Shown: positions 56-42,720 of the stretch, in pieces
How positions within the stretch are numbered: position 1 is the first letter of the stretch
Layout of the letters: each line of letters opens with the position of its first letter
From: a virus
Direction: 5' to 3' (one strand)
Length of the DNA stretch: 60,750 bases
Virus record (IMG/VR): IMGVR_UViG_3300045988_100865
Location: 1-60,750 of that record
Position numbers and translations under genes: made by a program
The notes under the pieces: model-generated
What the model was told of the DNA's origin: nothing
Databases searched by the model: none
The model's input: only the letters and a program-made list of their open reading frames with translations

Positions 56-440
56 TATATATGTTCCTATTCCTAAGTCAGTTGGTGGTAAAGGAAAAGG
101 CAAAGGTGTTAAGAAACAGTTTGGAGGTATTATCCCTGAGTATCACTCTGATGGTGATATTATTGGAGTTAACTGGACACCAAGAGGAACTGATACTGTG
201 CCTACTATGCTTACCCCTGGTGAGTATGTCTTGCGTAAGAAAGCTGTAGAGAGTCTAGGCTTAAACTTCCTGAATAATCTTAACAGTTATGGCAATAAAG
301 CCTTGCAAAGTAGCTCAGGACAGACTATAATTAATAATGTATACAACACAAATAATGCTAAGATCAGTCAAAATATTGACAATAAATCTCAGTACTTAAA
401 TGGGTTGTTTGGAATTGACAGATTGATGAGGTATGTTTAA
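1..440 (+). CDS. tape measure protein, C-terminal end (continues the ORF that runs off the window at 60750)
   Basis: The frame of the open ORF from 56300 maps through the 55-nt overlap onto listed ORF 27..440. Stop TAA at 438-440. Confidence 0.85.
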   Translation, partial: IDGALQALVNSVANFMAGIYVPIPKSVGGKGKGKGVKKQFGGIIPEYHSDGDIIGVNWTPRGTDTVPTMLTPGEYVLRKKAVESLGLNFLNNLNSYGNKALQSSSGQTIINNVYNTNNAKISQNIDNKSQYLNGLFGIDRLMRYV

Positions 441-1549
441 TGTTTAGATGTGATGAAAACTTCACCCAACCTAAACGCTACATCCAATTTAATGACCTTG
501 TGTTCCTTGGTAGAAAATCTATTGATGAGCAGACAGAAAGTATTAGTTTGCGTGAGAATAAAACCTCACGCACTTTTACTAATGGGTCTTATGTTGGTAA
601 CACTAGTAAGATGTCTCTTGTGGACTCTAACACAATCTCATTGCAGATAGCACTTAAGACACATGATTGGTCAGAAGAGCATGTTCAAGCTCATTATGAC
701 TTCATTATGGAGCAATTAATGACACCAGGTAAGCTGTGGGCTGTACAAACAGGTCTACAGCTTGTGTGGTGCAATGCTTATGTCACAAGTATTCAGAATA
801 ACAAACAGTGGGTACTTACAGATGATGATTATCTTGTGTTTAAGGTTGAGTTTGATAACCCAGACGGTGTGTGGTATAAGGCTGATGATGATAAGACATT
901 CTTAGAGCCTTATGATAACTGTGACTTCTTAGATATGAAAGCTAGTTGTTTAGGTAAGTCAAGGCATTGCTGTAATGGACTACCTAACTGTAATAACTAC
1001 TGTGAGTGCTGTGAGAGTGATTGTTGTGAAATGGATGGGATGATTGATCTCTGTACAGCACAGACAAATGTAGAGTTCATGAATGACTTCTTTGAAGAAT
1101 GTAACTCTAAGTGGAGAGTAGTTTATAACTGTTCTAAATGTAAGAAGGATGGTAAAGGTCTTCAATGCATGTACAAGAATGTTATCTGTGATACTTGTGT
1201 AAATGAAGTCTTAAATGGAGAGTTCTTATCTACTACTGTTCTTGATAGTCACAAGTGGAGTATTGCCATTGAGGGAGACTTTAAAGATCCTATTGTAAGG
1301 ATCAATGATATTGACTTCAAGATTCAAGGAGAGTACTCAGGTGTTCTTACAGCTAACTACAAGGGTGAGCTTAAATATGCTAAGTCTTGGGAATGTTTAG
1401 AGTTCAACTATAAGGATATTTCTCTTTCTGTTCTTAGACTATGTGCTGAGTTACCTTATATCAAGAAAGGTCTCAATACTGTGTCAGTAAGTGGTGTAGA
1501 GAGTGATACAGCCTGTATTTATATAGATTATGAGAGTGTAACAGTATGA
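440..1549 (+). CDS. distal-tail (Dit)-position protein with a Cys-dense insertion
   Basis: ATG overlaps the TMP stop (TAATG). It is the first gene after the TMP. Residues 161-253 hold 17 Cys (..CCNGLPNCNNYCECCESDCCEMDG..). The function call rests on position only. Confidence 0.5.
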   Translation: MFRCDENFTQPKRYIQFNDLVFLGRKSIDEQTESISLRENKTSRTFTNGSYVGNTSKMSLVDSNTISLQIALKTHDWSEEHVQAHYDFIMEQLMTPGKLWAVQTGLQLVWCNAYVTSIQNNKQWVLTDDDYLVFKVEFDNPDGVWYKADDDKTFLEPYDNCDFLDMKASCLGKSRHCCNGLPNCNNYCECCESDCCEMDGMIDLCTAQTNVEFMNDFFEECNSKWRVVYNCSKCKKDGKGLQCMYKNVICDTCVNEVLNGEFLSTTVLDSHKWSIAIEGDFKDPIVRINDIDFKIQGEYSGVLTANYKGELKYAKSWECLEFNYKDISLSVLRLCAELPYIKKGLNTVSVSGVESDTACIYIDYESVTV

Positions 1550-5637: not shown

Positions 5638-7419
5638 ATGGCTTATAAATTAGCTGAAGAGGATAAGCTCTGTGGAGTTATCTATCCAACTTATGAGGGT
5701 TTTAGCCCTATTCCTAAAGTCACCTGTGATATGTTAGAATCTAAGTGTGACCAAACAATTATTGTTAAATGTGGAGATAAAACAGAAGAAGATAAGAAAG
5801 ATCCTGAATCACAAAGTGGAAGTGCTTCTGCATCTGTTTCTGAAAGCACTTCAATGTCGACTAGTACATCAATGTCAACTAGTGATTCTGCATCTCAATC
5901 AGAGTCTAAGAGTGAATCTACAAGTAATAGTGTAAGTTCAAGTGAATCTACATCAGTAAGTGATTCAGCTAGTGTTAGTGAGTCTACATCTTATTCTGTT
6001 AGTGCTTCACAATCTACTAGTGATTCAACTTCACAATCTGACAGTACATCTGTATCAGAAAGTGAAAGTACTACAACTTCACAATCAAATAGTACTAGTG
6101 AATCTACTTCTCAATCAAGTTCCGTAAGTACAAGTGATTCTACATCTCAGTCAACTAGTGAATCTACTAGTGCTAGTGAGTCAAATTTAACAAGTAATAG
6201 TTCTTCAGAATCACAATCTGCTTCAGAAAGTACTTCAATTACAGAAAGCACAAGCAACTCTGAAAGTAAATCAGAATCTACTAGTGTGAGTGAATCTAAA
6301 TCAGTTAGTGATAGTGCTTCTGGCTCTCAATCTATTAGCAACTCTACTTCTGTGAGTGATAGTGTTTCAACTTCAGAATCTACTTCACAAAGTACAAGCA
6401 ATTCTGTGTCTAACTCAGAAAGCAAGTCAGAATCAACTAGTATGAGTAATTCAGCAAGTACAAGTACTTCATCATCAAGTGAGTCTAAGTCTGATAGTGC
6501 TTCTAACAGTGAATCTAAATCAGATAGTACTTTATTAAGTCAATCTGAATCTAAATCAGATAGTACATCTAATTCACAATCTGATAGTGCAAGTACATCT
6601 GATTCTACTTCAACTAGCACATCTGTGTCAGATAGTCAGTCTGAATCTAAGAGTAATTCAACCAGTACATCAGCAAGTGATTCTACTTCTGTAAGTACAT
6701 CAACTTCTACTAGTACAAGCACTTCTGATTCTATGAGCACTAGTACATCTAATAGTACATCACAATCAATGAGTACTTCAACCTCAGAGTCAGTTAGTAC
6801 TTCAGAATCTACTACAAGTATTAGTAACTCACAAAGTGAAAGTAATCTTGTTTCAACTAGCGAGTCTAAATCTGAAAGCATCTCTGCAAGTGGGTCTACT
6901 AGCTTAAGTAACTCTACATCTACAAGTAATAGTGTAACTACTTCATTAAGCACTACAGAGGCTTTAAGTGAATCAGAATTAGCTTCTGCTTCCTTATCAG
7001 AGTTATCATCTGAAGAATTTATTGCTCATTCTAATGAAATCAATACTATTAATGATAACCTTAGAGGAGCAACTGAAATATTAAATACTATGTTATATGG
7101 TAATATTTATGTACGTAGAGGAAATCCTTATACACCTATGTATCTTAAGGAAACTGTTTTAAACTATTTAGCTTTATCTTCTTATAGTAATAATGAAAGT
7201 AAGAGATACCTTAGTGAAAACTTAACAGTTAATGATGTACATATTGATCCTAAGTATAAGATGGATAGTGGACATGAACCTCAACAAGTACCATTAGTGT
7301 TTGATATTACACTTCCTTGGGGAGGTAAGAGAACCTTGGTAGTACCTACTAATGTTATCTATATGGATGAAGATATTGAGAAACCTGAACCTAATCCATA
7401 TATAGAAGGTCATACTTAA
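5638..7419 (+). CDS. serine-rich repeat fibre-like protein
   Basis: 593 aa. About 420 central residues are S-x-S-x repeats (SESTS, SDSAS, SKSES), flanked by non-repetitive N- and C-terminal domains. Confidence 0.75.
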
Positions 7420-7838: not shown

Positions 7839-8180
7839 ATGGATCACATTATTATTAGAATACTAGACGACCAAACAGTAATCTCAAGTATCACACTTGT
7901 GATCACTACAGCCTGTGGTTTAGGTGTTGCTTGGTTGAATAGTAAGAGAAAACAATTGGTAGAGTTATCTAAAGGTGCTAAGAGGGCTAGTCTTAGATCT
8001 GAGTACCTTAATATCTATAACTCTACAGAGTTCACATGGCAAGAGAAGTGGGATATGACTGAACCACTTGTGAAGGAGTACTTTGAAGAGCTAAATGGTA
8101 ATCATTACATTCATGGATTGAATGAGAAGATGAGAAAACATGTAGAAGAGGAAAAGGCAATTGGTAAAGATAGTAATTGA
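7839..8180 (+). CDS. membrane protein (one N-terminal TM helix)
   Basis: RBS GGAGG upstream. Hydrophobic stretch VISSITLVITTACGLGVAWL. Confidence 0.55.
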   Translation: MDHIIIRILDDQTVISSITLVITTACGLGVAWLNSKRKQLVELSKGAKRASLRSEYLNIYNSTEFTWQEKWDMTEPLVKEYFEELNGNHYIHGLNEKMRKHVEEEKAIGKDSN

Positions 8181-9264
8181 TAAGAGCTGTTTAACCAACA
8201 AAGGTGAAAGTACTTATGATGATACAGAAGTACTTAACAGACTCAAAGCCTTAGAAAATAGAACAGACAACTTTGTGAAAGAAGTTACTGTGTCTAGAGA
8301 TGGTAGTAAAGTTAAACTTACTTACACTAGAGTTGATGGATCATCTAGTGAAGTAGAGTTTGAGGATAAGGATACTATATCTGTTGCTTATGATGATACA
8401 GCTCTTAAGGAAAGAGTTCAAGCATTAGAAGCAAAAGAAGACAAGGACACAGTGTATGATGACAGTGCTTTAAAGACTAGAGTAGAGGCTCTAGAGAATA
8501 AGCCTGACAAAGATACTGTGTATGATGATACAGAGCTTAAAGCAAAAGTAACAGCCCTTGAGAGCAAAGTAGATAATGATACTATTTATGATGATAGTGC
8601 ATTAAAGGCTAGGGTTACAGCACTAGAGGCTAAAGAGGATAGTGATAAACAAACACTTAACCTCACAGGAGACGAGTTATCTATTTCTAATGGAAATTCT
8701 GTGACTCTACCAGTAGGTGTAGGTAAAGAGTTTGTAGTAACTAGTGATACTGAAGGAGTTGTAGTTACTAAAACTGAAGAAGGTAACACAGTAACACACA
8801 ATGTAAATCTAGATGGTGCTTTAGAGAAGTATTACAAGAAAGCTGAGACTTACACAAAGAAAGAAGTGGATAGCCTATTAGGGGAACAGGAAGAAAAGGC
8901 AACTGATCTTACTGTGTATAAAGGTACTTTCACAGATAGAAATAGAGTAAGAGAAGGTGATTATGACACACCAGTATCACCTAGGGTTACCCTTACTTAC
9001 TCAAGCTCTACTGGTGTAGGTATCTTCAAGATCGACTTTAAGGTAATGTCAAAGGTTGGATGGAGAGATGTTATTGCAAAACTACCTCCTGAAGCTCCTG
9101 TTCCTGCTGAACTAATTGAGACTCAGGTTTGGATTGGTAATAACTTTACCTCTGTATGGATCAATAAGAACTCTAGAGATGTTCAGATCTTTGGTGTATC
9201 TGATCCTAATTTGTTTAATAAACGTATCATTATATCAATTCCAGGTATCTTTAAGAAAGCATAA
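8161..9264 (+). CDS. tail fibre-like protein with tandem YDD-x-LK-x-RV-x-ALE repeats
   Basis: Four tandem ~19-aa repeats (KDTVYDDSALKTRVEALENKPD-like). The N-terminal ~90 aa are homologous to residues 71-160 of ORF 13546..15192. TTG start follows GAGGA. Confidence 0.6.
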   Translation: MVKIVIDKSCLTNKGESTYDDTEVLNRLKALENRTDNFVKEVTVSRDGSKVKLTYTRVDGSSSEVEFEDKDTISVAYDDTALKERVQALEAKEDKDTVYDDSALKTRVEALENKPDKDTVYDDTELKAKVTALESKVDNDTIYDDSALKARVTALEAKEDSDKQTLNLTGDELSISNGNSVTLPVGVGKEFVVTSDTEGVVVTKTEEGNTVTHNVNLDGALEKYYKKAETYTKKEVDSLLGEQEEKATDLTVYKGTFTDRNRVREGDYDTPVSPRVTLTYSSSTGVGIFKIDFKVMSKVGWRDVIAKLPPEAPVPAELIETQVWIGNNFTSVWINKNSRDVQIFGVSDPNLFNKRIIISIPGIFKKA

Positions 9265-9278
9265 TAAGGAGGAAACTT

Positions 9279-9482
9279 ATGTTAACAAATAAACAATATG
9301 ACTTGTATAAAAAACTTGTGACTGTAGTTGCACCAGCCTTAATCACTTTGATTACAGGTTTAGGGGCATTATACAAGTTTGACTCTACTGCTATCACAGG
9401 TACTCTAGCATTGCTTACCACATTTGCTGGTACCGTGCTAGGTATCTCAAGCAAGAAATATAATGAAAACTCAGGTGAATAG
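9279..9482 (+). CDS. holin (two TM helices)
   Basis: 67 aa with two hydrophobic helices and a charged C-terminus. RBS AAGGAGG upstream. Sits immediately upstream of the endolysin. Confidence 0.75.
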   Translation: MLTNKQYDLYKKLVTVVAPALITLITGLGALYKFDSTAITGTLALLTTFAGTVLGISSKKYNENSGE

Positions 9483-9484
9483 TT

Positions 9485-10837
9485 ATGAGTTATCAAGACT
9501 TTAAGAACTCTCACATTGGAAAGGGCTATGACATTGATGGTTGGTTTTCTTTCCAATGCTGGGATTTATATGCAGAATACTGTAGATGGTTAGGTGTACC
9601 ACATGCTAACTGTACTGATAGTGGTTATGCTAGTGATCTGTGGACACAAAGACACTCTAATGGTATTCTTAACTACTTTGATGAAGTAGAAGTAATGCAA
9701 CCAGGAGATGTAGCTATCTTTAAAGTTACATCATCTACTCCATATACACACGTAGCTATCTTTGATAGTGATGCAGGGAATGGTTATGGTAATTTCTTAG
9801 GACAAAACCAAGGTGCTCCTAATGGTGTAACTAACATTGTAAGATTACCTTACTCAGCTACATATCCTACAGCCTTTAGACCTAAGTCTACTTTATCAGC
9901 ACCTACAGAAGAAGGATCATCTAATGTAGTAAGTGGTATGAAGAAGAATGATTATTTCATTGATGTATCAGCTTATCAAGCAGGTGACTTAACAGCTATC
10001 TGTAATGCTAGTGGTACAAGAAATACCATCATTAAAGTATCTGAAGGTACTGGTTGGTTGTCTCCTGTAGCAACTCAACAAACTAATACAAGTAACTGTG
10101 TAGGTTATTATCACTTTGCGCGGTTTGGTGGTGATGTAGGTACAGCACAGGCTGAAGCAAACTACTTCATTAGTAACCTTCCTTCACACCCTAGATACCT
10201 TGTGTGTGACTATGAAGATGGTGCTAGTGGTAATGTACAGGCTAATACAAACGCTGTACTAGCTTTTATGGATGTATGTAAGCAAGCAGGCTTTGAGCCT
10301 ATTTACTATAGCTACAAGCCTTACACACTTGCTCATGTATATGTAGATCAGATCACAGCTAAATACCCTAATAGCTTGTGGATTGCTGCTTACCCTAACT
10401 ATGAAGTTACTCCTGATCCTTATTGGGGTGTATATCCTGATATGCCTCACATGAGATGGTGGCAATTTACATCTACTGGTATTGCTGGTGGATTAGATAA
10501 AAATATTGTGTTGATTGATGATGAAGGATCATCATTTAGTAAAGAAGAAGAGGATGAAGAAATGAATTTTGTTGTAAGAAGTAATAGTGGTACTCAAGGT
10601 TATTTGGCTGTTGTGAATGGTCGTGTGTTTGGTATTGGTGATATTGAAACTGTAACACAATTACAGGGAGCAGGAGCTAAACACCTAAACCTTCCAGATG
10701 CTGACTTTAATCGTTTCCTTGAAAGTCAATCAAGAGATTCAGAAGTGATTAAACAAGCTATCTCTGAAGCTAATGCTCAAGTAGTGGAAGCTTTGGAAAA
10801 GATTAAAGCTACTGCTGTAGAAGCTAAAGAAGACTAA
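9485..10837 (+). CDS. endolysin: N-terminal CHAP, central GH25 muramidase, C-terminal domain of unknown type
   Basis: CHAP: ..SFQCWDLY.. and ..PYTHVAIF... GH25: ..IDVSAYQ.., ..GYYHFARF.., ..LVCDYED.., ..RWWQFTSTG..LDKN... Confidence 0.9.
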   Translation: MSYQDFKNSHIGKGYDIDGWFSFQCWDLYAEYCRWLGVPHANCTDSGYASDLWTQRHSNGILNYFDEVEVMQPGDVAIFKVTSSTPYTHVAIFDSDAGNGYGNFLGQNQGAPNGVTNIVRLPYSATYPTAFRPKSTLSAPTEEGSSNVVSGMKKNDYFIDVSAYQAGDLTAICNASGTRNTIIKVSEGTGWLSPVATQQTNTSNCVGYYHFARFGGDVGTAQAEANYFISNLPSHPRYLVCDYEDGASGNVQANTNAVLAFMDVCKQAGFEPIYYSYKPYTLAHVYVDQITAKYPNSLWIAAYPNYEVTPDPYWGVYPDMPHMRWWQFTSTGIAGGLDKNIVLIDDEGSSFSKEEEDEEMNFVVRSNSGTQGYLAVVNGRVFGIGDIETVTQLQGAGAKHLNLPDADFNRFLESQSRDSEVIKQAISEANAQVVEALEKIKATAVEAKED

Positions 10838-10864: not shown

Positions 10865-10896
10865 AGGGGAGGGGTATATCCCCTCCCTATTTTATT
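10865..10896 (+). terminator. intrinsic terminator after the lysis cassette
   Basis: aggggagggg-tatat-cccctccct, a 9-10 bp GC stem followed by attttatt. Confidence 0.8.
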
Positions 10897-10905
10897 GGAG
10901 GAACT

Positions 10906-11781
10906 ATGGAAGACATTTGTAAACAAAAGGACTGCTCCTGTGAGAATGTAGGTATTGGAGACTGTACCAAGCTACAAGAGCTTAATGACCTTCAAATTAG
11001 ACCTAAAATGAGGGCTATTCTAAAAGCTGAATGGTGTAATCTACCTGAGGCTATTAGAAGAGGCTTCTATGGTGTGTGGTGTGTTCTTAAAAACATTATC
11101 AACCAACTATGCTACATCTTAAGTAAGCTAGAGTGCTTAGAGTCTAAAGTAGATAAGCTGTGCTCTATTGCTAAGTGTCAAGATGAGAGAATCACAGGTC
11201 TTGTGGAACATATTAAAGGTAAAATGCTTGAGAATGTTGTCTTTGGTATGAAAGGTGTAGGTACATCTACTAATGCTTCAGGTAATGGAGATACTTTCAC
11301 TTCTGTGTCTGTTAAACAAAATGGTGAATTTACTATTGTATGGAATATGGTATCTGGTGGTGGAGAAGTAGGTAGAGGTACAATTACAGGTAGAGTATCA
11401 CACATGTACACCATGAATGATGATGGCACTATTAAAGCCCATATATCTAGAGTTGACTTTGATCAAGTTAGATATGTAGGTGATGGTGGTAATCATGGAA
11501 ACAATGCTACTTTCTCTATCATGGATACTAATGGTAGAACTGTGTGGACTAAATCTTATCAAGTAGGTTCAAGCTTCACTGATAAACCTGGATCTATCTC
11601 TATTGGTAAAGAAGCAATCCTTCAACCACAAGGAGGTAATACAGGGGATCTATTGCTATTCAAGACACTTGACCAGTGGTATTTTGACCCTACAGCAAGT
11701 GATGTGAGAGCTACCTATGTAAATAACAACTCACCTCTCCCTAAAGTTGAAGGTTGTGTTATCGACTGTGATAACTGCTAG
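10906..11781 (+). CDS. Cys-rich N-module protein 1 (adhesin/fibre-like, family unknown)
   Basis: ATG 10906 follows GGAGG. The listed TTG start at 10858 lies inside the terminator hairpin. N-terminus CSCENVGIGDC..LPEAIRRGFYGVWCVLKNIINQLC..; C-terminus EGCVIDCDNC. Confidence 0.7.
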   Translation: MEDICKQKDCSCENVGIGDCTKLQELNDLQIRPKMRAILKAEWCNLPEAIRRGFYGVWCVLKNIINQLCYILSKLECLESKVDKLCSIAKCQDERITGLVEHIKGKMLENVVFGMKGVGTSTNASGNGDTFTSVSVKQNGEFTIVWNMVSGGGEVGRGTITGRVSHMYTMNDDGTIKAHISRVDFDQVRYVGDGGNHGNNATFSIMDTNGRTVWTKSYQVGSSFTDKPGSISIGKEAILQPQGGNTGDLLLFKTLDQWYFDPTASDVRATYVNNNSPLPKVEGCVIDCDNC

Positions 11782-11789
11782 GAGGCACT

Positions 11790-13073
11790 ATGTTTGAATA
11801 TTGTCCTAATTGCAGATGTAGAATAAAGTTCTATAAAGCTCATGAATGTGAGAAGATGAAGCATGACCTAGCTGACTCTGTGAAGTTGACTGGTGATGCT
11901 ATTGCTAATGGAGAAGAGTGTAAAGTAAAAGAAAATACAGCACATGGTTTCTTCAGAATATGGTGCAATATCAAGAACATTATTGAGATCATCTGTGATA
12001 TAATTAAACGTATGAAGTGCTTACAGCGTAAAGCACAAAAGGTTTGTGAAGTACAGCACTGTTTAGCTGAGAGAATTGAAAGTGTCAATAGATTTATTGG
12101 TGTTTACAACTCGGATCAAGCTAATAAACCTTCACCTGATCAATCAGATTGGGAGGCTAACAAGAAGAGACTTGAATCTGATTATCAAACTAGTCTAAAT
12201 GGATACAATGCTAGAAAAACTGAATATGATAGAGCTTTACAGGCTTACAATGATAGCAACTCAAACTATGCTTCTGCTATTGCTTCTTATAATGCTAGAA
12301 AAGCTGAATATGATAGAAAAAAACGTGAATATGAATCAGGTAACTCATCACAGCAAGGTAGTCAAGGTCAATGGCAAGAGGCTTGGGGTACATTTGCTAA
12401 ATCAGGTCAACCTTATGACGTAGCTATGGGAGGTTCTCCTAATGGATCTATCCACGGTTTAGACCTTTCTATAGCCCATAATGCTGGTAAAGGTAGAGGT
12501 GTGTTCTTCAAAAGCTTAAACAATGAAGGTACATCTGTTGAGATGAAGTTAGACCTTATAGGATATTCTTATGAAGGTAGGGGTTCATCAATTAAGAATG
12601 GTTATTATGTTCCTTTTGGAGGTACCTATGATTGGTACTTAGATTACTATGTATCTACCGATGGTGGTAACAGCTATACACCTGTAGAAACAGGAGTACT
12701 ACTAGCAAAACACGGAGATTCTCAAAATCTTGCTTATGGGGCTAATTGGCAAGCTTCCACAATTAACTGGTCTAAAACCATTAACTTACCTAGCAACTTC
12801 ACTCATCTTAAAACTGAAGTGCGTGGAGATATACCAGGAGAAAGACACCAAAATGTGTACACAAGAGAACAGATTGTGAGAAAACCTTTCCCTCCATTCA
12901 CTGAACAACCCCCTGTGAATAATGCTAGAAGACCTGAACCATTTACTGAACAACCTCCTCAAAAACCTACTATTCCCCCAAAACCTGAAAAGAAAGTAGA
13001 AACTATTCCTCTTATTAAGGGTGGATGTGACTTGATGGGTTGTAAGTTTGATTGCTTTATTGATAATAAATAG
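11790..13073 (+). CDS. Cys-rich N-module protein 2 (Y-x-A-R-K-x-E-Y-D-R repeat, beta-rich domain, Pro-rich tail)
   Basis: N-terminus CPNCRC..AHGFFRIWCNIKNIIEIIC..; C-terminus GGCDLMGCKFDCFIDNK. RBS AGGAGG upstream. Confidence 0.7.
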   Translation: MFEYCPNCRCRIKFYKAHECEKMKHDLADSVKLTGDAIANGEECKVKENTAHGFFRIWCNIKNIIEIICDIIKRMKCLQRKAQKVCEVQHCLAERIESVNRFIGVYNSDQANKPSPDQSDWEANKKRLESDYQTSLNGYNARKTEYDRALQAYNDSNSNYASAIASYNARKAEYDRKKREYESGNSSQQGSQGQWQEAWGTFAKSGQPYDVAMGGSPNGSIHGLDLSIAHNAGKGRGVFFKSLNNEGTSVEMKLDLIGYSYEGRGSSIKNGYYVPFGGTYDWYLDYYVSTDGGNSYTPVETGVLLAKHGDSQNLAYGANWQASTINWSKTINLPSNFTHLKTEVRGDIPGERHQNVYTREQIVRKPFPPFTEQPPVNNARRPEPFTEQPPQKPTIPPKPEKKVETIPLIKGGCDLMGCKFDCFIDNK

Positions 13074-13081
13074 GAGAAAAT

Positions 13082-13546
13082 ATGTCAGATTGTATTAACT
13101 GTCAATGTGAAGAGATTGTTGTAGGTAAAACAGCCTGTGACTCTCTTAAGAAACAGAATGACGACAGAATTAAATTACACTCCCTTGTGCTGAGGGATAC
13201 AACACTTTGTGACCTACCTGAGCAGACATCTAAAGCTTTTTATTCACAGTGGTGTTTTAATAAGAATGTCACTAATCAACTGTGCTGGTTGGCTAATAAT
13301 AGCTCAGGTTATGATGATGCTGATCTTAAAGCTGAAAATGCAAAGCTTAAGGGTGCTCTAATGAAGATTATTAACAACTTAACTGCTAGTGGAGCTTGGC
13401 AAGGAGGTCTTGAAGGAGACTTTGTGCCTAACAGAAATATTGCTACTGGTAATATTAACTTGTTCTCTAACACAGTTGATAGTGACTTCTTTATCCGTAC
13501 TAATAATGGACAAACAGAAAATGACTTGGCAGGAGGTATTAATTAA
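13082..13546 (+). CDS. Cys-rich N-module protein 3 (short; C-terminal module shared with the next gene)
   Basis: N-terminus CINCQCEE..LPEQTSKAFYSQWCFNKNVTNQLC... The C-terminal 60 aa are homologous to the C-terminus of ORF 13546..15192 (..NIATGNINLF..FIRTNNG.TENDLAGGIN). Confidence 0.7.
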   Translation: MSDCINCQCEEIVVGKTACDSLKKQNDDRIKLHSLVLRDTTLCDLPEQTSKAFYSQWCFNKNVTNQLCWLANNSSGYDDADLKAENAKLKGALMKIINNLTASGAWQGGLEGDFVPNRNIATGNINLFSNTVDSDFFIRTNNGQTENDLAGGIN

Positions 13547-15192
13547 TGGGATGCACAACTTGTAGTGGAAACCCTAATACATGGTGTACTCAGTGTATGC
13601 CTGCTGAAGACACTTGGGTAGCTCCTGTGGATAAGCTTCCTGATGTGTTCATGGGTGATAGAGACCACATGTATCTTCTTCCTAATGGAGACCTTTATAT
13701 CCTTTCTCCTGATAGAACTAGATGGATAAAGGTTAATGGTCAAGGTGGAGGAGTTACCTATGATGATACTGCTGTGATTAATAGGCTAAAAGCACTAGAG
13801 GGTAAAACAGATAACTTTATCTCATCTGTAGGTGTATCAAGAAATGGTAACAGGATAAAACTTACTTATACATTAGTAGATGGTACTGTTAAAGAGGTAG
13901 AATTTGAAGATAAGGACACTGTAGCCTTAGCCTATGATGATTCTTCTCTAAGAAATAGGATAAAAGCACTAGAAGATAAGCCTGACAATGATAGGCAGAC
14001 TCTAACCTTTACTGAAGGTAATAGAAACCTATCTATTAGTAATGGAAACTCAGTAACACTCCCTAATGACAAACAGACCATTTCTAAGCAGGGTAACAAG
14101 CTAGTATTATCAAATGGTGGAGGAGAGGTTGACCTACCTACACCTAAAGATTCTGTGCCTTATGATGATTCTGCATTGAAAGCTAGAGTAACAGCTCTTG
14201 AAGCTAGACCAGACAATGACAAGCAGACTCTTTCTTTTGATAAGAACACAAGAAACCTCACAATTTCTAATGGGAATACTGTAACTTTACCTGAAGAGCC
14301 TACTGAGGGTGGGGATAACTTAATCTGTAACTCTTCCTTCCCTGAGAATACAAATGGTTGGGGATATTGGACTTCTGATCAAAGAAATGCTAAACTATCA
14401 GCCTCTAAGCACCCTTTCTATTACAATAATAATGCTAATATGTTTGTGCTTACAAATGACTCAAGAGATCCTGTCCCTACAGCATCACAAAGGTTTAATG
14501 TCAAGCGCAATACAGAGTACTCCTTGAACCTTTCTACTTTTGCTACAGATAATCTTAAAGGTGTTACACTATACTTCTTAGGTAGACAAAAAGGACAAAA
14601 AGAACCTTTCACAAATGTAGTAACCCTCAAGGATACAACAAGTTCACCTTCCACAACTGGATTGGCTAGTTATCATCTAACATTTAACACAGGTGATAGT
14701 GATGAAGGCTATATCCGTATTGATAACAAAGGTACAAATGATACAAGTCCTTCATTATTATTCTTTGGTGATGTAGATGTATATGAAGGTACTGCTAAAA
14801 GACCTTGGAGACCTTCACTTAAATGTGCTATTGATAGCTTAAATAGTAAGCAAGATAATGATAGACAAACATTATCACTAGCAGGTAACACACTATCTAT
14901 TAGTAATGGAAACTCTGTGAACTTACCTCAGTATGTATCACCACAGGACTTTAACAACCTTAAGAATGAGTACAACATGCTAAAAGGTGCTTTCACAACT
15001 CTTCTTCAAAACCTTAAGAACTCAGGGGCTTGGAATCAAACAGGTAACACTATCTTTGAAGGTTCTCTAAGACCTGATAGAAACATTGCTACAGGTAACA
15101 TTAACCTCTTTGGTGGAACTGTTGATGGTAATGCCTTTATTAGAACTAACAATGGCAAGACTGAGAATGACCTTGCAGGAGGTATCAACTAA
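13546..15192 (+). CDS. mosaic fibre / receptor-binding-like protein with a CBM-like central domain
   Basis: ATG overlaps the upstream stop (TAATG). N-terminus CTTCSGNPNTWCTQC. Shares modules with 8161..9264 and 13082..13546. Central ..NLICNSSFPENTNGWGYW.. resembles carbohydrate-binding module starts. Confidence 0.7.
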   Translation: MGCTTCSGNPNTWCTQCMPAEDTWVAPVDKLPDVFMGDRDHMYLLPNGDLYILSPDRTRWIKVNGQGGGVTYDDTAVINRLKALEGKTDNFISSVGVSRNGNRIKLTYTLVDGTVKEVEFEDKDTVALAYDDSSLRNRIKALEDKPDNDRQTLTFTEGNRNLSISNGNSVTLPNDKQTISKQGNKLVLSNGGGEVDLPTPKDSVPYDDSALKARVTALEARPDNDKQTLSFDKNTRNLTISNGNTVTLPEEPTEGGDNLICNSSFPENTNGWGYWTSDQRNAKLSASKHPFYYNNNANMFVLTNDSRDPVPTASQRFNVKRNTEYSLNLSTFATDNLKGVTLYFLGRQKGQKEPFTNVVTLKDTTSSPSTTGLASYHLTFNTGDSDEGYIRIDNKGTNDTSPSLLFFGDVDVYEGTAKRPWRPSLKCAIDSLNSKQDNDRQTLSLAGNTLSISNGNSVNLPQYVSPQDFNNLKNEYNMLKGAFTTLLQNLKNSGAWNQTGNTIFEGSLRPDRNIATGNINLFGGTVDGNAFIRTNNGKTENDLAGGIN

Positions 15193-16592
15193 TGGCAGAC
15201 CAAATTACACTTAATAATGAACAGATTGCTAAAGTAAGACAAGTCCTCAAGTTAAATATGTACTATTCTGAAGAAGGTGTTGAAGTAACTTCTGAAGGTA
15301 ATCATTTTACTATTAAGTCTCCTATGACAATTCCTGTAAATGGAGTTGAAACACCTATTGGTTATATAAGTACTGAAGGTGCTGTGTTTTATGATCTTAC
15401 TGTTGAAAATGGTGTAATAAAGCTAAAAAATGTCAAGGTAAGAATAAAAAATGTAAACTACAGAAGAGCAAATAATAGATCTATTACTGGAGTACCTGCA
15501 CAATACAAAATCAGAGTAAATGGTTATAATAATATCATCTATGATAAGTCTTATCCCCCAGGAGGTGGTGAATGGACTGATAACCTTAACAAGGACATTC
15601 CTATTAATGATGTAGACATCTCAGTAAAGCGTTATGAACTTAAGTATAGTGCAATAGATATTAATGATTCATGGGTATACAATCCTACATATGGACAAGT
15701 ATCTTTTAGTTTGACTGTACCTGATAGAAACATCCTTAAAATACCTAAAGCACCAACTGAGGGTACACTTGTAATTAAGTATAAAAATGATGTTACAGGT
15801 GAGGTATTATATACTACTAGTGAAACAGTACAAGGTAACACTAATCATTCCCATACTGCTCCTGAGATTTTTAAAGCTACCTATAAGCTCATTGGGAACA
15901 AGACTCAAATTAGGATGGTTCCTGCTGGGGATACACAAGAGATGGTATTCAGATACAATCCCATCTATGGTCAAACTGTGAAGTATATTGATAAGGATAC
16001 AGGACAAGAGATTAGAACTAAAAGTTACACTCCTGTGACATATGGAGATCCTTTTAGACAAGACCCTCCTTCTATCCAAGGTTACAGGCTTGTACCAGGT
16101 CAGAACCCTATTAATGTACCTAGAGTTACTGGAACAGGAGACTACTCATTTAGATATGAGAAGATACCCACTACTGCTAATGTTATTGTTAAGCATCTTA
16201 ATAAGGCTAATAATCAACCACTACGGGATGATGTAACACTAAGCAATCAAACTATAGGAAGTAATGTAAATTACAACCCTCCTGCTATCACTAACTTTTC
16301 TCCTGAGAGAACAACCTATACTCACACTGTAGTTGAAGGTAATAATGTTATCACTGTGTACTACACAGAAAATGCTAAGATTAGGCCATGGGCTATTAGA
16401 AAGTCTAACACATGGAAGTCTCTCAACACCACAAAACAGTGGATGAAGATTAGAAGAAATGCTAATCAGAACTATTGGGATACTAAACCTAATGCTGAAA
16501 TCTATGAGGCTGATACAGGAAAAGAAAACTACTCACCATCACGTATTCGTAAGGGTGGTAAGTGGAAAGCACAAGGAAAGATAGGTAACTAA
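15192..16592 (+). CDS. MucBP-like repeat protein
   Basis: Three successive ~70-aa units follow the MucBP pattern (V.Y.D..TG..I......G......P..I.GY.L........F.Y). TAATG coupling to both neighbours. Confidence 0.6.
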   Translation: MADQITLNNEQIAKVRQVLKLNMYYSEEGVEVTSEGNHFTIKSPMTIPVNGVETPIGYISTEGAVFYDLTVENGVIKLKNVKVRIKNVNYRRANNRSITGVPAQYKIRVNGYNNIIYDKSYPPGGGEWTDNLNKDIPINDVDISVKRYELKYSAIDINDSWVYNPTYGQVSFSLTVPDRNILKIPKAPTEGTLVIKYKNDVTGEVLYTTSETVQGNTNHSHTAPEIFKATYKLIGNKTQIRMVPAGDTQEMVFRYNPIYGQTVKYIDKDTGQEIRTKSYTPVTYGDPFRQDPPSIQGYRLVPGQNPINVPRVTGTGDYSFRYEKIPTTANVIVKHLNKANNQPLRDDVTLSNQTIGSNVNYNPPAITNFSPERTTYTHTVVEGNNVITVYYTENAKIRPWAIRKSNTWKSLNTTKQWMKIRRNANQNYWDTKPNAEIYEADTGKENYSPSRIRKGGKWKAQGKIGN

Positions 16593-17443
16593 TGGCTATT
16601 GATGATAAGAAAACTAGACTGAATGAAGCAACATTTACTAGTTATGGGGATAACCCTAAAGATCATTGCTGGTATGATGAGTGTGACTGTGATGAAATTC
16701 CTGTTGCAGATTGTCAAAGACTAGTAGAAGAAAATAACAAAGGTGTAGGACGGTTTACATGTATGGCTGAAAGTCAGAAATGCTACAATCCTAAGTTCTT
16801 CAGCTCATTTATGAAGAAGCTTGCTTGTCAATTAAACCACTACATTCAAAATATCTGTGCATTATGGGATATGGTACAATGTATGGCTGAGTATCTTTCA
16901 AAAATGGGAGATACTGGTACTGTACAGGTAAATTATGCAAGAAACTCAGCTGTATCTTCTGCTGACTTCTATCACCCTATCACAGATAGTTATGACTTAG
17001 ACCTCTATATGGACTCAACTACAGGTGTTGTAGCTGGTGAGTCAGATGATGGAAGAAGAAAGCAAACTGACCGTAAGTATCGTGCTTATATCAGATGGTG
17101 TGCTGATGGTACTACTCTAAATCCTGCTCAGGATAATACAATGGAGTTTGTAGTATACCACTCAGGAGAACAGTATACTGAAGACCTTAAAAAGAACCGT
17201 GGTGTACACTGGCAAATGACTGGTGTATCAGATGGTGCTATGGAAATGTCAGACAGTATTATTGTTCCTGCTGGACAACATATCAAGCTTAGAGTAGAAC
17301 CTGCTAATTCATCTTCAGGTGTCTTCCGTGTTCACCAATTCAAGGTAGAATATACTCCTGTAATGGATGCTCATGATCTGCCTGATTGCTTGAAACTCAC
17401 AGAGCTCCCTAAAGATGATTGTAACTGTGACAAGAAGAAATAA
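16592..17443 (+). CDS. Cys-rich N-module protein 4
   Basis: N-terminus CWYDECDCDEIPVADC..FFSSFMKKLACQLNHYIQNIC..; C-terminus LPDCLKLTELPKDDCNCDKKK. Confidence 0.7.
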   Translation: MAIDDKKTRLNEATFTSYGDNPKDHCWYDECDCDEIPVADCQRLVEENNKGVGRFTCMAESQKCYNPKFFSSFMKKLACQLNHYIQNICALWDMVQCMAEYLSKMGDTGTVQVNYARNSAVSSADFYHPITDSYDLDLYMDSTTGVVAGESDDGRRKQTDRKYRAYIRWCADGTTLNPAQDNTMEFVVYHSGEQYTEDLKKNRGVHWQMTGVSDGAMEMSDSIIVPAGQHIKLRVEPANSSSGVFRVHQFKVEYTPVMDAHDLPDCLKLTELPKDDCNCDKKK

Positions 17444-17473
17444 AAAGAGAGCATTTAAGCTCTCTTTATTTTT
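17444..17473. terminator. bidirectional intrinsic terminator between the convergent late and early arms
   Basis: aaagagagc-atttaa-gctctcttt, a 9-bp stem with A/T runs on both sides. Confidence 0.8.
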
Positions 17474-17774: not shown

Positions 17775-17967
17775 AAGACCACAATTCCTCTCCACAATTT
17801 TTTATATAAATAGTTATATCACCTTTTTGAACCCTTGTGATTTTAGAGTCTCCAATCCATTCCTTAATGAATTTTTGTCTTCTCTTAAATCCACAAATGG
17901 TTTCATCAAAGTAACAATTTCCAAGTTCATCAATCAGTTTTACTTGATAAACCTTTATAAAATTCAT
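17764..17967 (-). CDS. hypothetical protein (67 aa)
   Basis: Listed ORF, co-oriented, overlaps both neighbours. Confidence 0.45.
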   Translation of the reverse strand: MNFIKVYQVKLIDELGNCYFDETICGFKRRQKFIKEWIGDSKITRVQKGDITIYIKNCGEELWSYES

Positions 17968-18820
17968 ACATACTCCTTGAAATGACTATATTATTAGTCT
18001 TAGGTTGTGTCTTCCTAGGATACCTAATCTTACACTTACCTATACTATACTTATAGTAAGATAGCAACATATGACCTACATCATTAATAGTAATGATTCT
18101 TTCTTTGTTATCAGCAAAGGCTTGATCAGCATACCATTCCATAATCTCCTGTGCAAACTCATAGTACTCACTAGCACTAAACCTATCTCCTCCTGTGAGA
18201 ATAAGATACATCTTTCTCATAGTCTCTGTAAAGCCTTTTATAAGATCAATTTCTATATGAAGCTCATTGATATAGGAAATGTCTGTAGCCAAGTTATAAG
18301 CTGTGAAGCTATTGATACCATAAACGTTACACTGTAAGTTATAATATTTAAATATCTCACTACACTTCCATTTATAGAAAAGATCCTCAGGAAGATTATC
18401 AATAAAATCAGCACAGGAAGCTAAGAAGTTTTCTCCTCTACTTAGTCCACTAGCTGGTAGATGGATCACAGAAGACCCATAATTAGGAGCTAACTTAAAC
18501 TTAGATGAATTAAGCTTCTTAGCTATCTTCTCAAGTTCATGTATTGTCACAACATCATTAATGCTAGTAAGCCTTCTGATGTACTTCTCATCACCTATAA
18601 GGCGATATACAAAAACAGTAAGTATTTTATCCCTCACAGGTACTTTTACTGTGTTAAGCGTTCGTATGAACATCTGAGACATATCATCAAGGTACTTAAG
18701 ATTATTAGGTAGATCCATATTATACAGATCTCCTTTAGTCTTATTACCTATACCATATTTATTCTCAAAAGCATCTCTACGCTTTAAAATATAGAGTTTA
18801 AACTCATCAACTTTATTCAT
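17930..18820 (-). CDS. hypothetical protein (296 aa)
   Basis: RBS AAAGGAG upstream. No family assigned with confidence (see findings). Confidence 0.6.
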   Translation of the reverse strand: MNKVDEFKLYILKRRDAFENKYGIGNKTKGDLYNMDLPNNLKYLDDMSQMFIRTLNTVKVPVRDKILTVFVYRLIGDEKYIRRLTSINDVVTIHELEKIAKKLNSSKFKLAPNYGSSVIHLPASGLSRGENFLASCADFIDNLPEDLFYKWKCSEIFKYYNLQCNVYGINSFTAYNLATDISYINELHIEIDLIKGFTETMRKMYLILTGGDRFSASEYYEFAQEIMEWYADQAFADNKERIITINDVGHMLLSYYKYSIGKCKIRYPRKTQPKTNNIVISRSMYEFYKGLSSKTD

Positions 18821-24478: not shown

Positions 24479-24969
24479 TCTGAAAAACCATTATCAATAA
24501 TTTCTAGTATCTTTTCCTTTAACCAGTCAGGAACAGCACCATCAATCACAGGATAATGTACAATTCTCCTTTCTATCTGCTTAGGTTCATCAACCATTAC
24601 ATGAGTAAAACAACAAGACTGTGATATATAGTCTGTAACAGTCTTGTAAGCATTACTAAATCTACGGTACATGTAATCTACCTCTTCAGGTAGTCCGTGT
24701 TTAGTCTTAAAGATCAGATCAAAGCTATTCATCTTAGACACAGGTTGCCCATAGTGTTTCCTAATATGTCTCAGACCATTGAAGAAATCATCCATTACAT
24801 ATACAGTACCCCTGATTGAAATAGTATACAAGTCTTCCCAATCATTCTGTTTGTCTATGTAGTGCTCAGGGTCAACCTTAAAAAACATGCGATTAGCCTC
24901 TCTGATCTCTTTATATTCATCAAGCCTGTACGCAGGCTTATCTAAGATTATCATTCTTATCCTCCCCAT
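24475..24969 (-). CDS. hypothetical protein (164 aa)
   Basis: Overlaps the end of the polymerase gene, co-oriented. Confidence 0.55.
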   Translation of the reverse strand: MGRIRMIILDKPAYRLDEYKEIREANRMFFKVDPEHYIDKQNDWEDLYTISIRGTVYVMDDFFNGLRHIRKHYGQPVSKMNSFDLIFKTKHGLPEEVDYMYRRFSNAYKTVTDYISQSCCFTHVMVDEPKQIERRIVHYPVIDGAVPDWLKEKILEIIDNGFSE

Positions 24970-26697
24970 GCTTGTGCAACTTCAGCATCAGCAATAATTG
25001 GTATTGGTACATCAATACCATCAAGAATAGATGGATGCTCCATTGCATACTTCAACTTAGGTACTACTTCATCAACATAATCATCTTTTATCTCAAAGAG
25101 AATAGCATCATGCACAGAACCTAATACAATACATCTATCATGGTCAATTTCTTTACTGAACACAATATCAGCTAAAGCACTAGTACACATGTCTGAAGCA
25201 AAGCCTTGTACTCCTGAGTTTATGGATTGTCTCTCAGCCTGTCCTCTTAGCTTAAAGTTGCTAGAGTTGATGTTAGGCAAGAAGCGTTTACGTCCTATAG
25301 GAGACCATGTATAACCGTTTGCTCTTGCAAACTCCACACAGTTCTTGTGCCATTCTATTAGTGTAGGATATGAATTGAAAAAGTTCTCACGTAGGTGTTC
25401 ACAGTCCTCTAAAGTAAGACTTAATCCATACGATTTCACATAGTCTACGAATGTTTTTGCACTCATTCCGTATAAAAAACCAAAATTACAGCTCTTACTG
25501 TAGGTACGTTTCCTCTTTTGCTCTTGAGGGCTTAACCCTGAAGTATCACCAAATAATAGTGTAGTAGTCTTACTATGTAAGTCACTTCCTGACTGATAGG
25601 CATGTTGCATGTTCTCATCTCCTGAAAAGATAGATGCTACACGCAATTCAACTTGTGATAGGTCACAGTTTCCTTGTATAGATACTTTCCCATTGTGTCT
25701 AATCACTACTGTTCCCTTAGGCATAGTCACACAATATACATCCTGGATAGTAGGCTTGGTAAAATCAACCACTTCACCACTCATGAATGTGTGAGGATCA
25801 TTTCTGTGTCTCTTATAGGAAAGATAATATACACGACTGTGTTTTCCATTAGTGACTTTCTTGTTATGGTCATCAATCCTTATAGTTGACTTTTTACCTT
25901 GAAGATTACACATTAGTTGAACAACCTCAGCAGTTTCTTTCATACAGGTTGTAAACCTTACTGTCTGCTTTCCTCTAGCTACTGTGTAAGTTGCATCCCA
26001 ATATTGTACTTCATCTAAGAAAGCTTTAATATCAAGATTATGAATACAGTTCATTGTAAGCTTCTTATCTCTATCTACAAAACCTTTTAGAAGATGATCT
26101 GTACGCTTACCTATATAGAAGTTGTAATTTACTACCCCATTACTCCTTATAATCTTACTGAATGAATATTCAATTCCTAGCATATTTAAAATATACTTAC
26201 AACGCTCAACCTTTCTCTCTTTGGAGAAGCAGAAAGTTACATAACCTTTCTCAGATTTACTTCCATCTGCTGTAAACATTGCAATATACCTAGACTGAAA
26301 TTCATTAGAAGCTCCATTATGGTAGAAGCCTGCATTAATGAAAGCGTTACCTCTAGAAAACCTTACATCCTTGAACTTATGTTTAGCTACATCATAATCT
26401 TTACCCCACACAGTGAGCATATTATGATTAGCTGTAGCACATAGTGAAGTATGTCTATCCTCATAGGAGAATGTTTCTCTATCCTTATGATGAATATACT
26501 GAAGAGGCTTTTCAAAAGTTATCTCTCTACTTTCTGTATCATACTGAGCTACTTTGAGTGATTTATCTAAAGAATCTAATCTTTGCCATCCTCTTTCAGT
26601 AAGCACTTCTGTATCTCCACTGAAACATTCAAGTATCTTCCATCCAGGTCTAGCTTCAATCAAATTTCTTACATTTTTATCCTGGGGGATCTGCTGT
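24957..26697 (-). CDS. family-A DNA polymerase, exon 2 (contains an in-frame intein)
   Basis: The frame is open upstream of the listed TTG start and reads QQIPQDKNVRNLIEARPGWKILE. After the intein come CDLSQVELRVASIFSGDENM (motif A), RTYSKSCNFGFLYGMS (motif B) and VLGSVHDAILFE (motif C). Confidence 0.85.
25668..26627 (-). mobile_element. intein (320 aa) with a LAGLIDADG-type endonuclease domain, inserted beside the motif A catalytic Asp
   Basis: Starts CFSGDTEVLT (block A). Block B is ..ATANHNML.. (TxxH). DOD-like motifs YIAMFTADGS and AFLDEVQYWDAT. Ends ..VYCVTMPKGTVVIRHNGKVSIQGN, followed by +1 Cys. Flanks rejoin as GWKILE/CDLSQVELR. Confidence 0.8.
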
Positions 26698-42537: not shown

Positions 42538-42720
42538 GTGGTGCGTTACTATAATGAGAACTATGTTGTGAATGAATATGGTGAACTTACTACTAATCAA
42601 CCTATAGTGAAGCTAGCTTCTAAGTATGGTGTTAGTGATAGTGCTTATAGAAAGTGGTTGACTAAAAGAGGACTACCTGCTAAACTTAAAGATATTAAGT
42701 TATTCATTTCGAGTGTATAG
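42538..42720 (+). CDS. 60-aa HTH-like protein encoded inside the tRNA insert
   Basis: GTG start 5 nt after AGGAGG. ..IVKLASKYGVSDSAYRKWLTKRGLP.. looks like a helix-turn-helix. Its last 10 nt overlap the nested tRNA. Confidence 0.45.
   Translation: MVRYYNENYVVNEYGELTTNQPIVKLASKYGVSDSAYRKWLTKRGLPAKLKDIKLFISSV

Follow-up and report, generated by a model that had tools for sequence, protein, structure and literature searches.

Cysteine-module proteins encoded behind the lysis genes of an uncultured, probably streptococcal siphophage as candidate tail appendages

Six tightly coupled genes, here called g1 to g6, lie behind the lysis cassette of the phage assembled as IMG/VR record IMGVR_UViG_3300045988_100865, and their position raises the question of whether they serve the phage particle or are accessory cargo. 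The whole record (positions 1 to 60,750; 60,750 nucleotides [nt]) was analyzed and is called the window below; g1 to g6 occupy positions 10,906 to 17,443 (Table 1). The first-pass annotation, made from the sequence, had described six coupled genes between two terminators, and the open reading frames (ORFs), their spacings, and both hairpins were confirmed at the same coordinates. It had also proposed swappable heads on a common cysteine (Cys)-rich adaptor, at the spot where temperate phages usually carry morons; the first part of that proposal is upheld below and the second is not. With moderate confidence, g1 to g6 are read here as displaced distal tail or baseplate genes, the products of which would be virion appendages built on a plan of conserved anchor plus exchangeable head.

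Conserved anchors and exchangeable heads

Relatives of the block were obtained by fetching IMG/VR loci with g6, which gave 77 loci; 55 of them reach the holin gene, and the counts that follow refer to those 55. Gene order is the same in all (55/55): holin, module, module, module plus tip, g4 N-domain through to tip, g5 C-domain, and module plus g6 head. The anchors of g1, g2, g3, and g4 are kept in 55/55 loci and the g5 C-domain is kept in 52/55, whereas the g1 head is kept in 43, the g2 head in 30, the N-terminal part of g5 in 27, and the binding domain of g4 in only 2. Anchors are thus retained while heads are replaced, and this, together with several head types over the 59 representatives of the module family described below, agrees with the proposed swappable heads on a shared adaptor. 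The g4 N-domain and the g5 C-domain are two further anchor types that the first-pass annotation had not distinguished.

Such constancy argues for structural tail or baseplate genes, as judged from gene content and order, and the moron island is rejected. The block shows no variable presence and has no promoter-like site of its own, either in the 17 nt between the 10866-10888 hairpin and g1 or nearby. An integrase was not found among the ten large early ORFs scanned, the remaining ORFs lying outside that scan, and a search of 185,579 species genomes with g3 found no prophage copy, the only match being a tip domain in a Ligilactobacillus metagenome-assembled genome. Terminators do flank the block. 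In Lactococcus phage P087, the same place is taken by gp86 to gp88, which lie behind the endolysin gene and are annotated as structural proteins, gp86 as a “putative neck-passage structure protein.” Furthermore, in two relatives (L004 and L006), only small ORFs lie between the CHAP gene and the holin gene, no fiber or receptor-binding gene precedes the holin gene, and the lectin-type proteins are all encoded after the lysin gene. None of g1 to g6 encodes a signal peptide, membrane segment, or LPXTG motif (maximum Kyte-Doolittle 19-amino-acid [aa] mean, 1.2).

The genes are spaced by 8, 8, -1, -1, and -1 nt from g1 to g6, and a ribosome-binding site (GGAGGAA) lies 2 nt upstream of the g1 start ATG at 10906. 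The hairpin in front of g1 is probably an attenuator, because g1 begins 10 nt after the hairpin and its T-run without a promoter-like site between them; read-through attenuation of minor particle proteins would be the simplest account. A comparable hairpin lies behind the lysin gene of L004; in L001 and L006 there is insufficient room for one, and the g1 homologue of L001 starts 5 nt after the holin gene.

The head of g1 is a V domain of the type found in streptococcal antigen I/II (AgI/II) adhesins. It matches Pfam PF18220 (4.5e-11; 43.2 bits versus a cut-off of 25) and PDB entry 5dz8 (phmmer, 1e-15), and its AlphaFold2 model, with a predicted local distance difference test (pLDDT) score of ~90, matches 5dz8 in Foldseek at 4e-11. 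Foldseek, which the first-pass annotation had suggested as a check, was run on the g1 model against the PDB and BFVD, and all matches ran through the head only. At the g2 position, family members in relatives carry GbpC heads. g2 itself scores 17.8 bits (0.004) against Adhesin_P1_N, below the cut-off of 27.1, and has no C-domain match; its order of Ala-rich helix, head, and Pro-rich stretch recalls the A-V-P order of AgI/II adhesins, which is a resemblance and not membership.

The remaining parts of the block also have relatives among phage proteins. The tips of g3 and g4 are 46 to 62% identical to the C termini of the Cp-1, Cp-7, and SOCP “appendage” proteins and of Streptococcus equinus podophage tail fibers (tblastn, 2e-20 to 4e-20), and phrog_17155 and phrog_7547 also match. 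The fiber repeats of g4 are 50% identical to the fiber encoded before the holin gene (8161-9264), which ties g4 to the tail genes; the middle region of g4 matches the PHROG “PblB-type receptor binding” (1.5e-20) and Streptococcus thermophilus antireceptor regions, and its N-domain matches P087 gp81 (AM6_083). The C-terminal 70 aa of g5 match EF62phi_0043, inside the structural gene block of EF62phi. The first-pass annotation erred in placing a carbohydrate-binding-module-like domain and MucBP-like repeats between the Cys-rich parts, as both are found in the module-free proteins g4 and g5. At 90% identity, g4 and g5 of the window are singletons, and g1 and g6 fall in clusters of 1413 and 651 sequences.

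The Cys module and its putative staple

The Cys-rich module that had been noticed in the genes starting at 10906, 11790, 13082, and 16592 is common to all four by BLASTP (g1-g2, 1e-14; g1-g3, 1e-12; g2-g3, 7e-8; g1-g6, 4e-7), and its Cys are superimposable. It spans 70 to 95 aa with seven near-invariant Cys, in the pattern C-x2-4-C-x-C ... C ... C ... (W)C-x2-(K)N-x5-C within ~70 aa, which g1, g2, g3, and g6 all share. Cys occur at equal positions in g1 and g2 (5, 8/10, 10/12, 20, 44, 59, 69, 77, 86, and 91); g3 follows them up to its C68 with an offset of -1, and the g6 positions are 26, 31, 33, 41, 64, 79, 89, and 97. Module identity among the paralogues of the window is low (19 to 30%), and Cys content is 3.0 to 4.6% in the four module proteins versus 1.3% in the remainder of the phage. 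The N-terminal placement first described, with a 22-aa leader before the g6 module, is not general in the family: in P0156, P0161, P0177, and a protein of L006 the module is not N-terminal.

As the first-pass annotation had suspected, the module falls outside known families, with no match in Pfam, PHROGs, or the PDB. Searching PDB sequences with the profile of the module, or with g2, g4, g5, and g6, returned nothing usable, tblastn of g1 against phage records gave no match, and no Cys module was found in the cultured-phage records searched by tblastn. Against 50,697 phage records, the DNA of the block gave nothing by megablast and only short g4 patches by blastn. No description of the Cys module or of the phage lineage was found in the literature. 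Judged by these searches, the Cys module is a previously undescribed candidate anchor domain of a new family that takes in the N terminus of P087 gp79.

The gp79 protein (AM6 ORF81, AM6_081), a distant homologue, matches the module over its N-terminal 80 to 100 aa (family hidden Markov model [HMM], 24.9 bits, E of 1e-6 over 1017 ORFs), and hhalign of the module family with the gp79 family gave 91% (E of 1.1e-6, 90 columns), with seven controls below 7%. P087 belongs to the same clade, and its gp79 keeps C5, C10, C12, C44, and C59 and the C-x2-N-x-N-L-I motif; it differs in lacking C20 and C69, the helix-extension Cys, and the C-terminal Cys tail, in its unrelated head, and in being a single copy before the lysis genes. 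A search with AM6_081 returned only close relatives (68 to 100% identity). The gp79 gene adjoins that of gp78, the receptor-binding protein of P087 (PMC5371800). For the g4 N-domain, the p593 N terminus, Dit, AM6_079, AM6_082, and AM6_083, homology to the module was rejected (hhalign, all <1.1%), and a by-eye likeness to the N terminus of gp78 (AM6_080; FIEYTRCLIRNII) was not established (hhalign, 0.4% with four sequences and 6.4% with the family).

Module relatives numbered 55 in a word-indexed search and 59 when HMMER was run exhaustively over 1.84 billion cluster representatives, an E value of <=1e-3 defining the 59 module-family representatives; the four window proteins score 105 to 144 bits with the family HMM. 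The commonest type is g3-like (152 to 188 aa) and occurs on contigs of 58 to 64 kb or of ~120 kb, the latter looking like head-to-tail dimers. The partners of the module across the 59 representatives are BspA_v, GbpC, the Cp-1-type tip, and several unplaced domains. Within the phage lineage it carries at least six kinds of head. Its place in the chain varies: P0156 and P0161 have the order head, Pro-linker, module, tip, and in P0177 the module is flanked by BspA_v domains on either side. A ~120-aa beta-rich insertion splits the module between the CxxCxC knuckle and C20 in P0149 and in a 660-aa L006 protein (8007-9989); in the latter, the entire module lies near the C terminus, preceded by a g2-type head and MucBP repeats. 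Headless forms of g1 and g2 also occur naturally: P0134 (120 aa) and P0131 (189 aa) have lost only the head and keep the module and the Cys tail; they would be convenient minimal constructs for structure work.

All seven core Cys (5, 10, 12, 20, 44, 59, and 69 in g1 numbering) are present in 41 of 57 aligned representatives. C20 and C69 are absent together from P0153, P0165, P0175, and AM6_081, and neither is ever lost singly, save in P0179, where the Cys has moved by one residue; C44 is relocated ~11 residues upstream in some members. The C-terminal Cys clusters, correctly listed by the first-pass annotation for three module proteins (g1, g2, and g6), covary with Cys of the module helix, a relation that goes beyond what it reported. 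Helix-extension Cys (77, 86, and 91) are restricted to proteins ending in a Cys cluster: the presence of at least two Cys within the 31 aa that follow C69, set against at least two in the last 25 aa, gave 15/2/2/22 over 41 representatives (Fisher p = 2.5e-7, without correction for shared ancestry). The association can also be seen directly in the alignments, and tip-bearing members have Cys at neither site. The numbers also agree, with three in the helix extension and three in the tail in eight representatives and two and two in six. This long-form rule holds for g1 and g2 (3 and 3), and the short-form g3 has 0 and 0; g6 fits only partly, having one extension Cys (C97), three tail Cys, and two extra Cys. 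Paired gain and loss is the behavior of disulfide partners; metal sites are another possibility, because the proteins are made in a reducing cytoplasm.

From about residue 57 the helix shows a clean heptad pattern, with 80 to 100% hydrophobic residues at the a/d positions, and C59, C69, C77, C86, and C91 of g1 fall at f, b, c, e, and c, on the outer face of the predicted coiled coil. AlphaFold2 places helices at 20-40 and 43-109 in g1 and at 18-39 and 42-73 in g3, a helical hairpin that the monomer models give with low confidence. The g1 head ends at residue 273, 11 residues before C284, and C91 lies 20 helical residues ahead of the head. By our own arithmetic these stretches span ~35 Å and ~30 Å, respectively, which allows the tail to return antiparallel and reach C91, C86, and C77 in that sequence. 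The covariation, the outward Cys, and the joint loss of C20 and C69 point to a putative Cys-stapled stalk base.

Three anchor types would then operate in the block: the Cys module (g1, g2, g3, and g6), the 4-Cys N-domain (g4), and the C-terminal 70-aa domain (g5). The Cys module would be a coiled-coil stalk base, its CxxCxC knuckle and first helix folding onto the long heptad helix, where C20-C69 and other Cys pairs would hold them. Long-form chains would run out to the lectin-type head and return, so that the C-terminal Cys tail could be stapled one-to-one to the outward Cys (C284, C288, and C291 with C91, C86, and C77). Both chain ends would thereby come together at the base of the stalk. 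AgI/II adhesins have a comparable A-V-P hairpin, in which pairing of the A helix with the P helix brings both ends to the stalk base. The stapled base may dock on the particle, possibly on the Cys-rich Dit, and the heads may bind glycans of the streptococcal surface. In this model we infer the oligomeric state, docking partner, ligand, and disulfide-or-metal chemistry of the Cys module proteins; presence of the six products in the virion is suggested by the homology of their anchors to tail-module proteins and by synteny with the P087 structural genes.

Weighing the alternatives

Several points weigh against this interpretation. The virion placement of g1 to g6 is indirect, the conservation of g6 is circular, as the loci were fetched by g6, and the covariation counts are not phylogenetically independent. 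The “structural protein” labels of P087 belong to genes that are not homologous to g1 to g6 (only AM6_088 matches g4, with an E of 0.013), and gp79, next to gp78, is labeled only “hypothetical” in its record. A terminator immediately before g1 could mean separate, weaker regulation. In the AlphaFold2 model of g1 the head is confident, the module has pLDDT values of 56 to 74, and the tail is below 55; the g3 model (36-row alignment) has a mean pLDDT of 57 and a disordered tip. The Cys clasp is argued from covariation, because the AlphaFold monomer models did not place the C-terminal tail on the helix with confidence, and no conclusion on the fold of the module is drawn beyond “two helices,” because its models were poor. 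Simple pairing does not account for an odd count of core Cys (seven). Disulfides do not form in the reducing cytoplasm; stapling would therefore wait for release or give way to metal binding.

The Cys clusters of virion appendages might accordingly be metal sites, either Zn(Cys)4 knuckles or clasps or Fe-S sites like that of the lambda gpL-type tail tip, which is a tentative alternative. Besides synthesis in a reducing cytoplasm, it would accommodate the odd number of core Cys (7), the CxxC...CxxC of the g4 N-domain, and the four ligands offered by each of the CxxCxC...C knuckle and the 2+2 set (C86 and C91 with C284 and C288). However, Cys are gained and lost strictly in pairs (3/3, 2/2, and C20/C69), and a Zn(Cys)4 site would not survive the loss of two of its ligands; neither a Pfam model for zinc fingers or Fe-S proteins nor a PDB entry matched, and extensive virion disulfide networks have a precedent in phage Milano (PMC10811340). 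A different location, with the appendages forming a collar, whiskers, or neck-passage structure at the head-tail junction and docking on the Cys-rich head-tail adaptor, is considered unlikely. In P087, the only detectable homologues, gp79 for the module and gp81 for the g4 N-domain, are encoded among baseplate genes beside the receptor-binding protein, Dit is Cys-rich as well, and some relatives would be left without a baseplate receptor-binding protein, notwithstanding the neck-passage annotation of gp86 at the equivalent post-lysin position, the 19 Cys of the adaptor, and a g3/g4 tip derived from Cp-1-type “appendages,” structures that phi29-like phages carry at the collar.

The products might also be soluble adhesins released at lysis, or particle proteins with such a second life, that alter adhesion or aggregation and bring a moron-like benefit. 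PblA and PblB of Streptococcus mitis phage SM1 are reportedly particle proteins with a second life as adhesins, and the g4 match to the “PblB-type receptor binding” PHROG, the streptococcal adhesin origin of the heads (BspA_v, GbpC, and MucBP), the place of the block behind the lysis genes and a terminator, and the complete LPXTG collagen-binding adhesin gene in the early arm of the same phage would all suit this idea. It is nevertheless very improbable, as the block is obligatory and syntenic in 55/55 relatives and has no own promoter-like site, its anchors have homologues among the tail-module proteins of P087 and podophages, and some relatives have no other receptor-binding candidates. Co-assembly of the four module paralogues through their shared helix into one mixed stalk with several heads would explain why three or four of them always occur together in one operon and in fixed order, and low module identity (19 to 30%) is what specific hetero-pairing would produce; but the short-form helix of g3 differs in length from the long-form helices and family members occur singly on other architectures, so that a mixed stalk appears least probable of all. 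Displaced tail or baseplate genes encoding virion appendages are thus preferred.

Known systems share parts of this plan. AgI/II adhesins (BspA, SspB, P1/SpaP, and GbpC) resemble the block in the V domain of g1, the GbpC-type V domain at the g2 position, and the A-V-P-like order of g2, but g1 to g6 are phage-encoded cytoplasmic proteins without signal peptide, C-domain, or LPXTG motif; moreover, the AgI/II stalk is an intertwined A/P pair that continues into the wall anchor, whereas the base proposed here is a Cys-stapled module. The Cp-1, Cp-7, and SOCP “appendage” (ORF16) and the S. equinus podophage fibers share with g3 and g4 a C-terminal 75 aa (coiled coil plus ...NIATGNINLF...TENDLAGGI) but have a Cys-free N-terminal attachment domain where g3 has the Cys module. 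Receptor-binding proteins of lactococcal siphophage baseplates (TP901-1, Tuc2009, and p2; BppU, BppA, and BppL) likewise combine a conserved N-terminal plug with exchangeable C-terminal carbohydrate-binding heads. No sequence or fold match to them was found; the window anchor is Cys-rich and helical, the genes follow the lysis cassette, and the long-form proteins are proposed to return their C terminus to the anchor. PblA and PblB of SM1 are streptococcal phage fiber proteins with adhesin-like properties, as g4 with its PblB-type region may be, but PblB shares just one internal region with g4.

Other particle proteins of the phage are also rich in Cys. The Cys insertion of Dit is conserved in L004 and L006; the Dit of the P087 group has 9 Cys. 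The head-tail adaptor (51702-52490) has 19 Cys (CGCFDC, CGC, and CCKCCDPCSC), the portal N terminus (45614-45660) reads CGKCKRDDCGGQC, and a 166-aa protein (53208-53708) and a 451-aa virion protein (54930-56285) have 8 and 10 Cys, respectively. P087-group phages also carry a tRNA-Cys gene, and cysK of P087 is expressed (bioRxiv 10.1101/2021.01.05.425418), so tRNA-Cys and cysK fit an unusual cysteine demand in the clade. Dit and the head-tail adaptor could be candidate docking hubs for Cys modules. A clade-wide particle Cys chemistry, in which Cys-rich plugs lock onto these hubs by disulfide exchange or a shared metal only in the oxidizing, H2O2-rich oral environment and the adhesin-derived heads (AgI/II V and MucBP) also bind human salivary or mucosal glycoproteins, has the tRNA-Cys gene and P087 CysK in its support and is regarded as distinctly unlikely; if true, it would position the phage in the pellicle much as its hosts are.

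The phage, its neighboring genes, and implications

The window is a complete phage contig, circularly assembled, as judged from an identical 55-nt repeat at its two ends (1-55 and 60696-60750); the tape-measure ORF spans the ends (56300 to the end, continuing at 27-440). The late arm, on the + strand, carries packaging, head, and tail genes, then those for Dit, a Tal-like protein, a tail lysozyme, and a CHAP protein, followed by the fiber (8161-9264), a Dp-1-type holin (9279-9482), and a CHAP+GH25 lysin (9485-10837). Replication genes are carried on the - strand arm. The closest cultured relatives are phages of the Lactococcus P087 group (Teubervirus), with protein identities of 26% for TerL, 25% for Dit, and 31% for Tal. 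The host is taken to be a Streptococcus, because the phage has a Dp-1 holin and a PlyCB-like trace in its lysin, because relatives carry choline-binding and zoocin-TRD domains, and because DNA and protein patches are held in common with phages of S. thermophilus, Streptococcus pneumoniae, and S. mitis. The phage is probably a virulent, P087-related Streptococcus siphophage, and its lineage is widespread, uncultured, and apparently human associated.

Table 1. Positions of the six-gene block, its domains and flanking hairpins, and two further Cys-related genes in the window
Feature	Positions	Strand	Description
Distal tail protein Dit	440-1549	+	22 Cys; 18 in ~95-aa insertion (aa ~161-253, CDFLDMKASCLGKSRHCCNGLPNCNNYCECCESDCCEMDG...)
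Intrinsic terminator-like hairpin and T-run	10866-10896	+	Stem 10866-10888, 9 bp, 7 G-C; between endolysin and g1
g1	10906-11781	+	291 aa; long-form Cys module, AgI/II V-type lectin head, C-terminal CxxxCxxC tail
g1 Cys module	10906-11184 (aa 1-93)	+	CxxxxCxC knuckle, C20, helix 20-40, C44, long heptad helix from residue 43
g1 head	11233-11730 (aa 110-275)	+	BspA variable (V) domain fold
g1 C-terminal Cys tail	11755-11778	+	C284, C288, C291; covarying with C91, C86, C77
g2	11790-13073	+	427 aa
g2 long-form Cys module	11790-12065 (aa 1-92)	+	
g2 Ala/Tyr-rich helical repeats	12141-12332 (aa 118-181)	+	Followed by unplaced globular head
g2 Pro-rich stretch	12882-12995 (aa 365-402)	+	Read from sequence
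g2 C-terminal Cys tail	13020-13070	+	C413, C418, C422
g3	13082-13546	+	154 aa; short-form module, short coiled coil, tip
g3 short-form Cys module	13082-13291 (aa 1-70)	+	7 Cys; no helix-extension Cys, no C-terminal Cys
g3 Cp-1-type appendage tip	13313-13543 (aa 78-154)	+	
g4	13546-15192	+	548-aa fiber without Cys module
g4 N-domain	13546-13740 (aa 1-65)	+	C3, C6, C14, C17
g4 fiber repeats	13747-14292 (aa 68-249)	+	Common to upstream fiber 8161-9264
g4 PblB-type receptor-binding region	14305-14916 (aa 254-457)	+	
g4 Cp-1-type tip	14944-15189 (aa 467-548)	+	
g5	15192-16592	+	466 aa; no Cys, no Cys module
g5 MucBP repeats	15975-16124 (aa 262-311), best stretch	+	
g5 conserved C-terminal 70-aa domain	16377-16589 (aa 396-466)	+	Common to Enterococcus phage EF62phi structural-module protein
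g6	16592-17443	+	283 aa; 22-aa leader, module, unplaced beta-rich domain, Cys tail
g6 Cys module	16658-16906 (aa 23-105)	+	
g6 C-terminal Cys tail	17387-17428	+	C266, C277, C279
Two-way terminator hairpin	17444-17467	both	Closes late arm and convergent early arm
tRNA-Cys(GCA)	42711-42784	+	Sole tRNA gene of the phage, just upstream of late operon

Several genes outside the block were also noted. The early/replication arm contains a complete Gram-positive surface adhesin gene without Cys (31456-32904, - strand), the product of which combines a signal peptide with domains of the Big_8 (3.6e-14) and Cna-type Collagen_bind (1.3e-11) families and a Pro-rich spacer, and further has a sortase motif (LPQTG), a membrane segment, and a KKKEN tail. 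In contrast to g1 to g6, it looks like a true moron, which would be displayed on the infected cell. In the tail module, a 593-aa protein (5638-7419, +) has four N-terminal Cys, ~450 aa of SxSxS repeats, and a small C-terminal globular domain. Its Ser-rich repeats recall streptococcal serine-rich-repeat adhesins; it has no family match, and its L001 counterpart is alike only in the first 38 aa. A conserved ~113-aa protein (7839-8180) has one N-terminal hydrophobic segment and the motif LRNEYLxIYNS...LNGNHYIH. Homologues in relatives (6756-7112 in L004 and 5827-6168 in L006) are encoded directly upstream of the holin, and the protein may belong to the lysis cassette; in the window, the fiber gene is inserted between this gene and the holin gene.

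On the - strand, DNA polymerase A is split over two ORFs (27720-28895, exonuclease and N-terminal part; 24957-26663, C-terminal part), with domains of the LAGLIDADG type inside and between these ORFs (26771-27499); the gene may thus be interrupted by an intron or intein-type element. The product of 17930-18820 (- strand) has a weak match (5.6e-5, below the cut-off) to the helical domain of 5-hydroxymethyldeoxyuridine DNA kinase, a match also flagged in L006, and relatives encode dUTPase, dihydrofolate reductase, and thymidylate synthase; these hint at possible thymidine hypermodification in the lineage.

Modular receptor-binding proteins set phage host range and are the parts that get re-engineered. 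Their principle is known; what appears to be new, to judge from comparison of the proteins, is an undescribed and putatively Cys-stapled anchor domain for it, and it carries, among others, lectin heads taken from AgI/II adhesins of the hosts themselves. From the one-to-one covariation of Cys follows a concrete, testable model of a hairpin protein with both ends stapled outside the coiled coil, for which the link to P087 gp79 offers a cultured system. The block thereby adds a case to the few phages that apparently use cysteine chemistry in the architecture of their particles.

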